From NCBI GenBank assembly GCA_963924565.1, contig OZ004609.1, positions 13,330,001 to 13,394,000 on the forward strand: a stretch of DNA of 64,000 nucleotides. The letters run 5' to 3'. Each line of letters opens with the position of its first letter. The stretch's first letter is position 1. The notes under the pieces were generated by a model, which made no database searches, was not told the origin of the DNA, and was given only the letters and a program-made list of their open reading frames with translations. Origin of the DNA: Ascidiella aspersa (lineage: Eukaryota). Shown one piece after another: positions 49,133 through 55,100 of the stretch. The position numbers and the translations under genes are program-made.

Positions 49133-52100
49133 TCAAGTGTTAAGCCCACCTTCACAATAAGCGCCATCGGCCATGACAAGTTGCAGTATTCTTGGGTAGA
49201 GATCATCAAATCTGTCGCCCAAAACCGATTTCACCTTTTCCTGGCACACCGCCAACTCTTCGTCTTCGTCTTCATGAATTGCCTGAAAAAGTTGAAAACA
49301 CATACCATAAAAACATTTGCAACGAAAAATTGAATTAAGATGAGTTCGAATTATTAGCAAACGAATTATTACGCAAAATCAAAATAAAATATTAAGTAAC
49401 AAAATATTATGTCCAATAGGTGAAGTTGGCCACTGTGGATTTTTTGTTTGGGGGAGGGGGCATGAAAATTTTTCGAGATGATGTCACAAAGTTGCGTCTT
49501 AGATTAAAGTCATGAAGTCAAACAACGAATATTAAAAAACTGCTGTTCACGGAGCACATTATGCAACTGAAGTTAAGTCTAATGGCTCAAAGCGCAAAAA
49601 ATTGCATTTATTTGGTTTAAATTGGCCAAACTTTTTAATATTAGGGCACATAAAGGAGATTCGCATATTGCTCTATACAATTGCATTTATTAATCTGTCA
49701 AAAATTGCTATTCTAAAGTATATAATTCCATACAGCACAATATAAAAGGCGTAGTGTGCACGGCGGGTTTGGGCTGAAAAGATTTCCTTAAAACAGACAA
49801 AATCGTAGTGAAACTTGAAAAAGTTTTTTTTAGAAACCTTTATATATAAAAGTCGCCAAAAATATAGTTTGAAGGCGATGACCGGTTTCGCCACTAAAAG
49901 CGATCTAGGTCCAAGAACCATGGATTAAATGTTTGGCAAAAACATAATGTAAAAAAAAAAATATCATGGCAAAAAGTAGTTTTAGAAATTACATTCATGT
50001 TGGCAAAACTTGATAATAAACAAATCAAACAAGTTTATTTTTCCCAGTCAGTCCTTCGCGTCTCCTTGCTAACCGTTAACTGGGCGCTTCAATCCCTGGT
50101 TTAGTGAAAGTGTTTCAAAATTTTGGCCATTTCGAGTACTTGTATTTTTATAAATCCTTATAGCCTCTCCCTCTGCAATGGTCTGTGACAGACAGTTAAA
50201 ATGATAACAAATACTTACTTGCACGCATTTATAAGCATTAAGAAATGCATCGAAGCCCAACTCCTTTTCTAACTGCTCTCTATTGCGCTCCAAGCGGCAA
50301 AATATACTTTCTGTGTCGGAATTATCTTTTTTGGGATGATTACAATCGTCATCTTCGAAAGAACTGCTTCCACTTCCTACTACACAACAGTGTTGGTAAT
50401 TATTATTATTCATTAATGTTAAACAAAATAATTGTTGCCGTTTGTCGGAAAAACTATACTTCCAGATTCTTATTTGTTAATAATATAACCATTGCCAGAA
50501 TTAAAAAAAAAACGAATTGCAAAAGTGTTTCCGCTGATTTATCACGGCCAGGTGCCAAAAAACTACCTAAAATATCCCCGAAAAATATGGTGTCTAACGC
50601 GTCACAATGACGTCATCCATGTTCTAATGAGCTGCAAATATCAAAATATAGACACTATAGAAACTCGAAATTGGTCTTATGTTAAAGACTATATATGGGG
50701 AGTAACAAAAAAATCCACTGGATCAATTAGTAAACATTACAGCTAGCTCGTAATATGTTATCAGTCTATGCGATGCTTTCTGAACCGATAATAATGTGTG
50801 TACGACTGTACGTCGATGTGCAGTCACACCGTATAATCCTAAAGAGGTTTAGCTTGTTGATGATGCCTAAATTTCGTTATAACATGAACAAAGATTTAGT
50901 CCAATAGACTTTTTCGGTACACCCAGTATCTTCTATAAAAAAATATATTAATCTCGAGTGTCTATATCAGTGGTTCCCAACCTGAGGTCCACCGAGAGAA
51001 AGCATTTGGGGGTCCGTGATTGGGTTGCGGTTGTTGTATATTTTGTAAGGGGTCATTTTTCAGGGCCTTATTTTCAAGGGGGATTCAATAATTGTGTCAT
51101 TATAAATAGCGTTATTTACAAGGTTAATTTTTGTAATATTATATATTACACTTTGGTTTATTCGTTTTACGGTTTATATTAAGTTGTACTTTCTCTTGAC
51201 TTGTTTCTGCAAGCAAAAAAAGATATGGGCCGAAAAATTTCTTGCCTTCACCTATGACTTTACAGATGCAAAAGAACTTTTGATAGACATATACACATCC
51301 CAAAACTTTTCCTTGACTTGTTTCTGCAAGCATAAACAGATATGGGCCGAAAATGTTCTGCATTCATTTGTGACGTACCCCCTCTCCCTCAAATCACATA
51401 AAAAACAATTTATTTTCCCCCTATTAATAAAAAAAACCTACGATCAATTAAAAACAAAATGTTTGATGACCACGAAACCATAGATAAACGATGAACAAAA
51501 AAAAACATTCTCCACCCGGGAGTAAATATTTCATTAACAAAACAACATTTTTTCAAACCCCATTCAAAAAATGCACCCCCAACCCTTGGGCCAAAACCAC
51601 AAAAATCTACAACGTTCTTGAACATTTTTTTACTGTTTTTATTCAACAACAACAACAATCTGACAGTACAGTAGTTGGGTAGCATAGTTATTTCAAAAGT
51701 CAATAGTATGTTAATTGATGAAAGACACACACAAACATATGTGTTTAATAACATCTGTGATCTAGCCCCTCGGAAGTTGCTTTATGACCAACGATTATGG
51801 CTTCCGTATCAATAGTACACCGAAAAGCCATCGCAGACTCGCCGAATCTGTCGATCTATGATGCAAGCAGAGCAAGCCAGAAAAACAACTGGCCTGCAGT
51901 GAGGTTCGAACTCACGACCTCCGGTCAAGCCGGGACCGTCGCACATTGTGCAAGTATTGGCGCATGGTTGTTTCTCGACTCGCTCCTCTCTGAGCCTGCA
52001 TAGCTCAGTTGGTAGAGCGACGGTCCCGGCTTGACCGGAGGTCGTGAGTTCGAACCTCACTGCAGGCCAGTTGTTTTTCTGGCTTGCTCTGCTTGCATCA

Positions 52101-55100
52101 TAGATCGACAGATTCGGCGAGTCTGCGATGGCTTTTCGGTGTATGTTAATTGAGTTTCAGGCAAAATTTAGGTAGGGGTCCGCAGAATTAATAATTTCTC
52201 TAAAGGGGTCCGTGACAACAAAAAGGTTGGGAACCACTGGTCTATATGCATTTCAAATTTTGTGATACCCATAACGAATATAGCTGACGCAAGTTAGGTT
52301 TCCGATGTGATCAAATCTTCGAACTAGAAAAGAAGTGTCAGATTTTTTACCAGAAACAAGTACAATGTGTTTTAGTCACCTGACTCCCAACTTTCCTCGT
52401 CACTGTCCGCCGATATCTTGTGCGAGGACATAAATCCTGCAGCAAATGGAGGCGAAGATGAACCTTAAAAGTGAAAAAATGGTTTAGTGGACTATCGCAC
52501 TTTCCTTCAAACTTATTTTTGGGAAGAAATATTTTAGTTTAAAGTCAAATATACAGTAGCTATATAATAAATTGCAAAGCTAAAAAGGTCGATCTACTAG
52601 ACCTTTTTGGCGTTGCAATTTATTATCATGCTACATTACAGATCCGTGCATAGTGTACCCAAATATAGCTATATTTCACATAAAAAAAATGCATAAAAGT
52701 ATTAGGCCTATAGATAGCATGTAAATTGTAAAACAATGGTTCTTGTCAGATTGGTAAGAGAAACAAAAATCCGTTAGTCAGTTTTAGGACTGTGTAACTT
52801 GAAAGCAGTTGTAAGTCCAAACAACAAAAAGCAGAGCATCACCATCGCTGGTTTTCAGCGCGTTCTTTAACTGCTCCCTCATGTGGTCGAGCTCCTCGTC
52901 GTCAGTAGCAACCGCATCATCCAAGTGGCAACTTCCCTCCTCCTCATCAGAGACACTCCCTAAATCCTGCGGCTCCTCATCTTCATCGAAGTTGGTGTCG
53001 TTCATAGAAGACGCCACTGATATCCGGGGCACTTCTAAATCACCGGGTTTCTCTGACGTCACTGATTGAGAGGGATCATTCGTGGTTGGTTCTTCCTCCG
53101 GGATCTTTAAGAGGTCAGGGAGAGAGCAAGTCCGTAGCATCTAGTAATAACAGTTGTTACAGTTAGCATCAGGCCGCGGAGTCGGTTAAAAATACCACGA
53201 GTCCGACTACCGAGTCCGACCAAATGTGCGATTTCGTCGAGTTTCGAGTCTGGCCCTGACTCTACAGCCTGTGTTCCGCCAATTTACGTAGCTAAAATAA
53301 CGTGGATATTCAGCAATCGACTTTTAGAGGTGTCGTATAATTCATTCTCTCACAATACATAGTTGGAAAATATTCCACCATATGCTATTCCACCTTTACA
53401 ATTTCCAGGTGGCGGCCATACCAGTTTCAAAATGTGGTACTGTGCATGCGCATGTCGGACTCGGGACTCGGGTAGTTTTACGTGGTCTTACTCGAGCATT
53501 TCAGTTTGCATTATTTCGAGAACAACATAAACAAATACACATAAAATAGTCAATGAAACGTGCACATTGCACACACAGTGTGTTACAACTGAGATCTAGC
53601 CCTTCTGAAGCTGCTTTTTGACCAACGTGCGGCTTACGTATAAATAGTACACCGAAAGCCATTGCAGACTCAACGAATCTGTTGATCTATGATGCAAGCA
53701 GGGCAGGCTAGAAAACAACTAGCCTGCAGACCAACGATTACGATTTAACGTTTCTTACCTTTGGCGAAGGAGAGTCAAATTGACCAAGAGTAAGTTTCAT
53801 CAACACCATCTCACTTGCTGTGCAATACAAGCTCTTACTCAAATTATCTTGCTTCTCAAAGTCCGCGTGCGTCTAACAAAAAAAAAATAAAACAGTAAAC
53901 ACCAAACCTCGTTTATCTACCCGGAGCGTTATTGCAAATACAAAATAAAAGATGATGCGTACCGATTTTACTGGCGAGGTGGAAATCATCGATTTTGGCT
54001 TGAGCCTTTTAGTGAAGAGCGGACTCTCACTAACACTGGGAGTGGGTGGCAAGGGTCGGAGAGGAGGAGTAGGCGTCCTACTGTTGAAAAAAACAAGGAG
54101 GTAAATTGCAATTCAAACGACTTTTATTGCTCAGAGCCATTTTTTTAAATATTTTTTTCAAAACTGTTTTTTAGACAAGTTTATTTTGTGTAAACTTACT
54201 TTAAAACGCTAATATTTATTTTTTTACTTCGCATAGTATTTTCTGTGTTGCATTGCACGTAGCATAGGAGTTGTCAAATAAAACAGTAAAAGTGTGTTTT
54301 CTCGGCCCTTGGTTGGCAGGAAATACAGAACGTTTTTGTTGTCTGCTTTAGACGCACGCACTTGTTAAAGAAATGTGTGAACTCAATTTTTACATTTGCG
54401 TATCGAAAGTCAGAAAAAAAAATTATATGCATATAACACACGAACCGTTGCTACCTGGCATATATATTAATTACAATAGCTCATATATGTTAATGGTTGC
54501 CGAAACGTTAAATAATAAATATAATTACCAGAAGAGCTATTTTGATTTATTCATGGATATAACAGATTGTGGAAAGGGATGAAGCGACCTCTCAATTCGT
54601 AGCGTGACCCCGCCCCAAAATTTGGAAAGTCCTGACCTAAAGCCTTATTAGATCGTTTTTTATTGGATTTAGAGGTTTAACATGCTTTACATCAGCTTTT
54701 GTTTACCCAAATTGTTATTTTTTGTGATCGTTTTTAAATCATAAAATCGCTAAACGACAAAAAATTAGCGGGACAAATAGTGCTTATTTAACGATCGCGA
54801 AAGCTGAATCCAAGTCATACTTGGGTTCATTAGCTGTCGTATTTTCCTGTTCTTCCGTTTTAATTGACTTCTCCGACCATGCTTCGCGTTTAACCACATC
54901 CGAATCATCCTTTGCGAGAAGATTCTCAAGCATTGCCACCTCTTCAATCTCCTCATCACTTGAAAACAAGTCAGGTTTATCTTCTATTTGAGAAACAATG
55001 TTTGTTTTTGCAATTTCTAGTGAATTTTCTTCTTCCAATTTTGCGTTTTCTGGGTTTCGGTCCACCACGAACGTGTTTTTTCCTCCGAACTTGGGCGCGA

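Follow-up and report, generated by a model that had tools for sequence, protein, structure and literature searches.

The genome of Ascidiella aspersa harbours an abundant family of young, non-coding, tRNA-bearing repeats, whose copies end at two fixed sites of a 348-nt unit, A and B, 98 nt apart. Wherever both ends could be assigned, inverted copies combine one at A with one at B, and the Penelope-like elements (PLEs) resident in the genome follow the same rule. The family is probably a non-autonomous passenger, copied by the reverse transcriptase (RT) and GIY-YIG endonuclease of a resident PLE, its inversions arising through priming on two strands at two sites. The copy described first lies in a 64,000-nt stretch of contig OZ004609.1 (positions 13,330,001 to 13,394,000), called here the window; coordinates count from its first letter.

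The insert and its locus

Two arms of the unit stand head-to-head within a single duplication, inside a DNA element that itself lies in a gene:

50968..52239, no strand: host non-autonomous DNA element of 1.27 kb, with short terminal inverted repeats and paralogues
51706..51718, no strand: left copy of the 13-bp target-site duplication, one copy only in the fetched paralogous empty sites
51718..51942, minus strand: arm A, unit 121-345; its 3' end is fixed site A, at the left edge
51718..51815, minus strand: 98-nt 'tail', the stretch that separates start sites B and A, at the arm A end only
51816..51942, minus strand: left palindrome arm, unit 121-247, the portion copied in both arms
51943..51946, no strand: 4-nt junction insert; taken together with the two bases before it, it reads as the reverse complement of unit 50-55
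51947..52143, plus strand: arm B, unit 51-247; its 3' end is fixed site B, at the right edge
51994..52068, plus strand: tRNA-like gene (ARAGORN; Rfam RF00005, 54 bits)
52017..52143, plus strand: right palindrome arm, unit 121-247, exact complement of the left arm
52141..52153, no strand: right copy of the 13-bp target-site duplication, matching the 13-mer at 51706-51718
52380..52463, minus strand: upstream exon of the NEK1-like gene, 84 nt (splice sites read from the sequence; stranded RNA depth)
63303-63473, minus strand: kinase exon of the NEK1-like gene (match to NEK1)

An earlier note on the window had described a perfect 127-bp palindrome around a 74-nt spacer, bracketed by one 13-bp duplication, and so much stands: the arms are 100% complementary over 127 nt each, and the paralogous empty sites confirm the duplication. 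The 3-nt microhomology that it had pointed out is also there, GTA being both the final three bases of arm B and the first three of the right duplication; base 51718 is likewise common to arm A and the left duplication. It was right, too, in seeing a single and very young event. There is one duplication, with a head-to-head geometry as if both target strands had been primed, and over its 422 nt of unit sequence the insert departs from the reference unit (locus L030) at a single position, unit 265 in arm A, arm B having no difference. The 4-nt junction insert derives from the start of the right arm, by fold-back or by a template jump; together with the tRNA cloverleaf and the surrounding 1.27-kb element, it had not figured in the earlier note. 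The assembly contains a single instance of the inversion junction. Among the contigs and reads listed for public runs none bridges it; nine raw reads carry a same-strand joint at the insert's positions, and other inverted loci could be their source.

The 13-mer is a true target duplication, since the DNA element that received the insert is multi-copy and its paralogues show the empty site. The left flank runs into the right flank, insert absent, in all 11 paralogous loci fetched (40 matches were listed), and window 52154-52200 is matched without gaps at 41-46 of 47 positions in eight of them, and in the other three after a one-base offset. The host element, which we take to be hAT-type, is flanked by an 8-bp duplication (50960-50967 and 52240-52247), as is its paralogue L273. 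An apparent empty site in the contigs of a second organism (organism B) was rejected as orthologous: it equals paralogous copies of the host element, and is therefore uninformative on the NEK1 intron of that species.

The gene, on the minus strand, is NEK1-like: a piece of its kinase exon matches NEK1 (PDB 4apc) with E 1e-29, the next best match being at 4e-12, and stranded RNA reads cover the 84-nt exon. The insert sits about 230 nt into the intron after that exon (about 50377-52379). The earlier note had the insert place a hairpin in the NEK1 pre-mRNA; its position in a NEK1-like intron is borne out, and any effect on NEK1 is hypothetical. The insert is an ordinary young copy of an abundant family; the locus by itself is not special.

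A family with two ends

The family has 744 exact 19-mer matches genome-wide. Its units are arranged head-to-tail, in arrays of up to 12. The tRNA-like gene displays a full cloverleaf with a 7-bp acceptor stem, A/B-box-like motifs and the anticodon GGC, and is followed by a run of five T (52074-52078). To judge from these motifs, it may act as an internal promoter of the kind found in tRNA-derived SINEs. It is almost unchanged in an older subfamily (80-90% identity), which keeps both ends and the inversions. The predicted fold of the unit is compact (z -5.4). Rfam searches of the locus and of a unit dimer (E up to 10) returned the tRNA as their sole match and no ribozyme; a candidate hammerhead at unit 11-40 was rejected, its core-like heptamer CTGATGA (unit 11-17) being followed by neither helix II nor GAAA, and missing from the older subfamily. 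Both strands are equally represented in one stranded cDNA RNA-seq run, about 20-fold below DNA per base read, in a type of library that can miss small circles. A family-wide excess of A-to-G changes was not found in 61 copies (23 A>G vs 23 T>C).

The ends were counted in a sample of 75 insertions on chromosome 1. Non-inverted copies number 40, with 20 ending at A, 15 at B (unit 244-252) and 5 elsewhere. The other 35 are inverted, all of them head-to-head with 3' ends outward; a script assigned A and B ends to 26, and a gapped recheck of the remaining nine brought this to 29. One end is at neither site in six, while A+A or B+B combinations are absent from the 35. A further 20 loci, chosen by their A end, comprised seven inversions, five of them A+B and none A+A. 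In every A+B case of the chromosome-1 sample the inner end falls within unit 243-254. The earlier note had considered such an inversion unusual, and its inner start as set by chance microhomology in the manner of L1 twin priming; inversion is in fact commonplace here, with palindromes of at least 50 bp in 24 of the 35 inversions (at least 127 bp in 5; perfect over at least 50 bp in 10), and the inverted arm ends at the same fixed site as 15 of the 40 direct copies. Nor do the tandem units with their two fixed ends favour a reading as an ordinary tRNA-derived SINE.

Arms may also stop at the partner site. Eleven of 26 A arms are at most 104 nt long, and five halt at unit 245-247, which is site B; 5' ends fall in unit 241-252 in 12 of 110 cases, against 3.8 expected if uniform, and are otherwise scattered along the unit. 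Three B arms measure 347-352 nt. Microhomology of 2-5 nt is found at 18 of 26 B ends, and target duplications, with a mode of 13 bp and 73% AT, in 42 of the 75 insertions. In the young subfamily, A and B are both followed immediately on their 3' side by a common 11-mer, which was considered as a recognition signal; the two sites do not share it in the older subfamily, and it is therefore not one. Covariation lends the hairpins at A and B thin support, two-sided change affecting 2 of 40 pairs (covariation term -0.03).

Whether both arms were copied from the same RNA receives a mixed answer: recurrent variants are common to both arms in L087, L097, L130 and L104, while the two arms are unlike in L109 and L120. 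In older inverted copies the arms have drifted apart in sequence (168/175 in L088, 136/145 in L077). The results are mixed, too, for a monomer circle as template: one array has seven variants in all its units, while the units within L116 and within L087 are set apart by variants seen again in other copies.

Resident Penelope-like elements and a proposed priming model

Two 3' ends, 27-86 nt apart, also characterise seven RT/GIY-YIG-linked PLE families, which were delimited through their hammerhead anchors; the 98-nt tail of the insert is analogous to their tails. Loci of these families with both strands combine one long and one short end in 16 of 16 cases (15 independent). In PLE2, 26 of 40 loci are inverted head-to-head, 18 pairing the tail with the short end, 8 the tail with an unresolved end and none two tails; its target duplications have a mode of 13 bp (27 sites). 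Variable duplications of about 10-14 bp at AT-rich targets are common to the family and the resident PLEs. The signature previously read as L1-driven matches the genome's Penelope-like elements, not L1. Target flanks of the family and of PLE2 are both A-rich, and their profiles do not discriminate between partners. The partner screen covered resident PLE loci, and DNA similarity revealed no extended homology to the loci screened. Between the older-subfamily tail and the PLE2 tail there is a weak match, with 25 of 30 columns agreeing (p about 0.001 by shuffling, the best of 14 comparisons); none is seen for the young-subfamily tail (p 0.18).

A PLE studied in vitro cut and extended the two strands alike; two internal start sites define its tail, and the protein is predicted to be a dimer (PMC11167929). 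The layout of PLEs comprises an inverted 5'-truncated copy and a one-sided tail (PMC8557442, PMC3846280). For the family, we propose that the PLE enzyme would introduce nicks some 13 bp apart, one per target strand, from each of which a cDNA would be primed: one would start at hairpin A of the RNA, the other at hairpin B, the exact position being tuned by primer pairing of 0-5 nt. Both cDNAs would halt early and then be joined head-to-head, while a single productive priming would yield a direct 5'-truncated copy. The 127-bp palindrome would be the stretch that both cDNAs covered, unit 121-247, easily obtained on a multimeric or circular template. Against this reading count the missing hammerhead, which most PLE ends have, and a 98-nt tail that exceeds the longest resident tail measured (about 86), along with the lack of extended homology to the PLE loci screened, the young-subfamily tail unlike that of PLE2, the six inversions with an end at neither site, the mixed results on a shared RNA and the thin covariation.

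A bolder version, which we regard as rather unlikely, has host tRNA-splicing enzymes cutting multimers in successive anticodon loops and ligating a 348-nt circle, which a two-headed Penelope RT/endonuclease would read from A and B on opposite strands until each copy meets the other's start. If true, the tRNA cloverleaf would take over from the hammerhead as processing signal; circular RNA could become mobile without a ribozyme, and inverted, one-tailed Penelope insertions would have a general mechanism.

Other explanations and known systems

Self-priming, that is a fold-back on the antisense template, was proposed for rotifer PLEs, palindromes at inverted junctions being so interpreted in PMC3846280; the 5-bp fold-back in the insert's junction and the presence of RNA of both strands fit it. 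We find it unlikely here: a mirror junction would be expected of a fold-back, whereas the starts of the two arms bear no relation to each other along the unit (121 and 51 in the insert, scattered in the sample), while the one-A-one-B outer ends and the A arms halting at B are left unexplained. A conventional tRNA-headed SINE, moved by an L1- or RTE-type LINE with chance twin priming through the 3-nt microhomology, would account for the tRNA-like gene with its box-like motifs, the 13-bp duplication, the geometry and the 3-nt overlap. It is very unlikely all the same, and largely refuted already by the one-A-one-B rule. A poly(A) or simple-repeat tail is absent, the tRNA lies within a tandem unit and is followed by T5, the inner end is a fixed site, and the 35 of 75 inverted copies compare with germline inversion rates of 0.02% for Alu and 18% for L1 (PMC12016303). 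L1 twin priming, as described there, shares with the family head-to-head arms in one duplication and microhomology at the inner primer; in the family, however, the outer primer is not poly(A), the inner start is fixed rather than a variable site chosen by the target, and the arms overlap by tens to hundreds of bases, against a germline L1 median of 12 bp. In tRNA-derived SINEs the tRNA heads a monomer on its 5' side, and a poly(A), simple-repeat or LINE-derived tail closes it; the family differs by its scattered 5' ends, tandem arrays and ends at two internal hairpins.

A degenerate retrozyme, cut and circularised by a hammerhead or unknown ribozyme so that the circle serves as template, is highly improbable. 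It would fit the unit size and tandem arrays, which resemble animal retrozymes (PMC7229834), the CTGATGA heptamer, the B arms of about unit length and the array with seven variants in all its units; Rfam returned only the tRNA, though, the heptamer lacks both its continuation and its counterpart in the older subfamily, a single monomer circle does not predict units differing at recurrent variants (L116, L087), and the RNA run shows no sense-strand excess. This explanation concerns the processing of the template, and mobilisation by a PLE is compatible with it. That we are dealing with an assembly artefact, or with two independent insertions, is scarcely credible: a single duplication brackets both arms, paralogues give the empty site, the arms are asymmetric and the junction insert templated, arms of older copies have diverged, and public-run contigs contain same-orientation joints such as other inverted copies would give. 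In its favour are the want of a bridging contig or read among those listed, and the perfect palindromes that sequencing fold-backs can yield.

Endonuclease-bearing PLEs (Penelope/Poseidon; PAc of Anolis, PMC11167929; Pen2a of Adineta, PMC3846280) have, like the family, two 3' ends with a one-sided tail, a head-to-head inverted 5'-truncated copy, tandem copies, AT-rich targets and duplications of 9-16 bp. The family differs from them in having neither ORF nor hammerhead, in its tRNA-like gene and in its longer tail (98 nt, against 30-40 nt in those PLEs and 27-86 nt in the resident ones). Among Chlamys PLEs there are non-autonomous derivatives, such as MRC1 (PMC8557442), which are non-coding, multicopy and head-to-tail, with a pLTR-like structure; these generally resemble their autonomous partner at the 3' end, where the family has a weak 30-nt match in the older subfamily only, and the family further departs from them by its tRNA-like gene and animal host. 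Animal non-LTR retrozymes (PMC7229834; bioRxiv 10.64898/2026.07.22.740005), for which mobilisation by PLEs has been proposed, are tandem non-coding units of about 350 nt with a compact fold, as is predicted for the family. They are defined by a type I hammerhead, absent from the family units, and an abundant circular monomer RNA is expected of them; the word 'tRNA' never occurs in the preprint. The TRIMp3 elements Cassandra (5S) and Helenus (tRNA) likewise are non-autonomous, carry a small-RNA gene sequence in the repeat and occur in tandem arrays, but they belong to the LTR elements, having a PBS, a PPT and duplications of 4-5 bp (PMC10886601), whereas the family shows duplications of 13 bp, is truncated on the 5' side and starts from two internal sites. 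We found no tRNA-bearing PLE passenger in print, cited papers being taken without their supplements.

How inverted PLE ends with a one-sided tail arise is described as undefined in PMC8557442; PMC3846280 attributed them to self-priming. In the family, hundreds of near-identical, short, fully readable insertions obey the one-A-one-B rule strictly and show stops at the partner site; the model of two-site, two-strand priming can therefore be tested directly, using a 350-nt RNA and a protein from a resident PLE. A passenger of this kind, with a tRNA gene inside and no ribozyme, would pass for a SINE or a satellite in repeat annotation. By extrapolation from the chromosome-1 sample, the long hairpins it leaves in the genome would be of the order of a hundred or more, the copy in the NEK1 intron among them.

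The inverted copy and its family

The insert at 51706..52153 was first described as one retroposon insertion, with two palindromic arms (51816-51942 and 52017-52143) separated by a spacer and bracketed by a 13-bp target duplication. Arms, spacer and duplication were re-checked on the sequence and agree with that description. The family to which the insert belongs is built on a 348-nt unit, observed directly in head-to-tail arrays of up to 12 units. Numbering starts at L030:337, a real unit that serves as reference. In the window copy, a minus-strand arm (unit 345 to 121) is followed by four inserted bases and a plus-strand arm (unit 51 to 247); together the arms differ from the reference at one position in 422 nt. 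The features of the window that matter here are the following.

8516-8709: further family copy, young, direct
22098-22237: further family copy, older
50968-52239: non-autonomous DNA element of 1.27 kb hosting the inverted copy; it has short inverted repeats at its termini and a duplication of 8 bp
51994-52068: complete tRNA-like cloverleaf, anticodon GGC, followed by five T (ARAGORN and Rfam)
53585-53729: further family copy, older

The host DNA element, which we take to be of the hAT type, has at least 40 related loci among the genomic matches listed. In 11 of the 11 paralogous copies examined (of 40 matches listed) the site is empty. Because these paralogues read straight from left flank to right flank, the window copy must be a single insertion event, as had been proposed. 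The insert and its host lie within an intron of a NEK1-like gene, which is encoded on the minus strand and has a neighbouring exon covered by stranded RNA reads. The host element also contains a direct repeat spaced 117 bp (51188-51359). Elsewhere in the window, a short inverted-repeat element is present twice (52556-52663 and 44861-44936), and a separate repeat family, which has inverted ends and short repeats of the GAGTCGGACTCGG type, occupies 8723-9026 and 53170-53496, the two copies being 73% alike.

Searching the same genome gave 2246 candidate matches to the element, and 3953 when an older copy was the query; exact matches number 744 for a 19-mer and 542 for a 25-mer. Among the 61 copies lying within 3% of the reference unit the mean difference is 0.8%. 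An older subfamily, at 80-90% identity, retains both the two ends described below and the inversions. The young family was also seen, at 95% identity or more, in contigs of run X3, which carries a second organism label; it is not restricted to a single species label.

Two fixed ends and their pairing

The first 100 of the 744 19-mer matches (contig 1, 0.1-35.7 Mb) formed 78 clusters, reduced to 75 insertions once three segmental duplicates (L060, L064, L089) had been removed. Two 3' ends are observed directly: the 40 direct copies terminate at site A (unit ~345) in 20 cases, at site B (~247) in 15 and at other positions in five. The remaining 35 of the 75 are inverted (34 of 74 if L131, a probable duplicate of L130, is discarded), with 3' ends outward in 35/35. 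Inversions, which the earlier note had judged unusual when the duplicated overlap is this long, are common in the family.

The pairing of ends in these inversions is also a matter of direct observation. A script found one A and one B end in 26 of the 35; comparing the remaining nine again with gaps allowed added L099 and L114 and, by eye, L138, while one unassigned end persists in six of the 35. No inversion in this contig-1 sample pairs A with A or B with B. The sample is conditional on a motif from the B region, and 20 further loci were therefore chosen by their A end: seven are inverted, five as A+B and two without assigned pairing, and none of the 20 is an A+A inversion. It is this family-wide rule, rather than the window copy, that makes the case of interest.

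The arms have their own regularities. A arms are at most 104 nt long in 11 of 26 cases, and five stop at 245-247, that is, at site B, where direct copies have stops as well; overall, 12 of 110 5' ends fall within 241-252 (3.8 expected if uniform). Three B arms measure 347-352 nt, one whole unit. The palindrome reaches at least 50 bp in 24/35 inversions and at least 127 bp in 5/35, and is perfect over at least 50 bp in 10/35. Target duplications were detected in 42/75 insertions (mode 13 bp, 73% AT), and overlaps of 2-5 nt with the duplication are common (18/26 B ends, 15/35 A ends). Both ends lie within predicted hairpins, the A domain being borne on a long predicted stem; covariation support for these hairpins is thin. 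The young copy at 8516-8709 ends at A, followed by a short TCAT stutter, then an 11-bp duplication, and similar stutters occur at three other loci (L014, L189, L190). Complex or interrupted insertions (L004-L006, L173, L098), one spanning an N gap, fall outside the simple two-arm pattern.

Could the window palindrome have been created by the assembly? No contig or read bridging its junction appears among those listed from public sequencing runs. An artefact is nevertheless unlikely, because a duplication brackets the insert, paralogous sites are empty, the junction is templated, and older inversions elsewhere in the genome have arms that have diverged from one another. The palindrome is very probably real, and the window copy is an ordinary member of its family.

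Resident Penelope-like elements as control

The genome harbours many families with reverse transcriptase and GIY-YIG domains. In each of seven families of Penelope-like elements (PLEs), anchored by their hammerhead cores, two 3' ends lie 27 to 86 nt from each other. The matching rule is directly visible: loci with both strands represented combine one short and one long end in 16/16 cases (15 independent). For the family PLE2, 40 of 74 tail matches were sampled, a choice in which pairs of short ends are invisible. Twenty-six of the 40 are inverted, all head-to-head; 18 join the tail to the short end, eight join it to an unresolved end, and two tails are found in 0/26. Target duplications were found in 27 (mode 13), and several tail arms terminate at the inner site. 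The tRNA-bearing family, which we call the passenger, therefore resembles these resident PLEs in its insertion behaviour. Links at the sequence level are weak. In the older subfamily 25/30 columns agree with the PLE2 tail (shuffle p ~0.001, the best among 14 comparisons); the young subfamily shows no such match (p 0.18), and nothing longer was found to be shared between the passenger and the PLE loci compared. The resident clade PLE2-PLE6 (L191-L270) is marked by minimal hammerheads and includes several ORFs of 700-840 aa; its tails measure 75-86 nt, a length two- to threefold that of the published PLEs compared (30-40 nt).

Mechanism, template and known systems

According to PMC11167929, purified PLE enzyme, a predicted dimer, nicks and extends both strands, and reverse transcription begins at two internal sites bounding the tail. 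For the passenger, both nicks probably prime cDNA, from A for one and B for the other; two incomplete cDNAs would then become joined head-to-head, and the palindrome would be the region copied by both.

The variants point both ways on whether one RNA or two served as template: recurrent ones are common to both arms in four copies (L087, L097, L104, L130), and the arms differ in two (L109, L120). They are likewise divided between a circle and a linear multimer. Within arrays, seven variants are common to all units and 87 occur in some units only, most likely as later mutations; yet in L116 and L087 the units combine variants known from other copies, which one circular monomer would not predict. 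No ribozyme was found in the unit. That host tRNA-splicing enzymes process the passenger RNA is speculation. Because a conserved T5 run directly follows the cloverleaf, it is unproven that the tRNA-like gene promotes transcription of the mobile RNA. In one stranded RNA run, whose library may fail to capture small or circular RNA, the two strands are equal and the level is ~20-fold below DNA per base read, as expected of host read-through. The copy at L058:1468-1869 (duplicated as L060) departs from the unit at four positions, all of them A-to-G changes on the sense strand and all inside a 50-nt stretch (unit 250-300), a pattern such as editing of the template RNA before copying would leave; the family as a whole has no A-to-G excess.

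The inverted layout with two ends is already known in PLEs (PMC8557442, PMC3846280), as are non-autonomous derivatives such as MRC1 (PMC8557442), and hammerhead retrozymes have been proposed as PLE passengers (PMC7229834; bioRxiv 10.64898/2026.07.22.740005). Sequences of tRNA occur inside non-autonomous LTR elements (PMC10886601). Human twin priming is rare for Alu, with short overlaps (PMC12016303). No published tRNA-bearing, ribozyme-free PLE passenger was found in a search of mainly non-subscription main texts, outside Repbase and Dfam; the accessible part of a butterfly preprint (10.1101/596502) mentions short non-autonomous Penelope elements, with no detail. Finally, two small contigs of the assembly (C35 and C11, loci L031 and L032) carry bacterial-looking genes, with excinuclease- and Rho-like frames by eye, and are probably those of a symbiont or contaminant.
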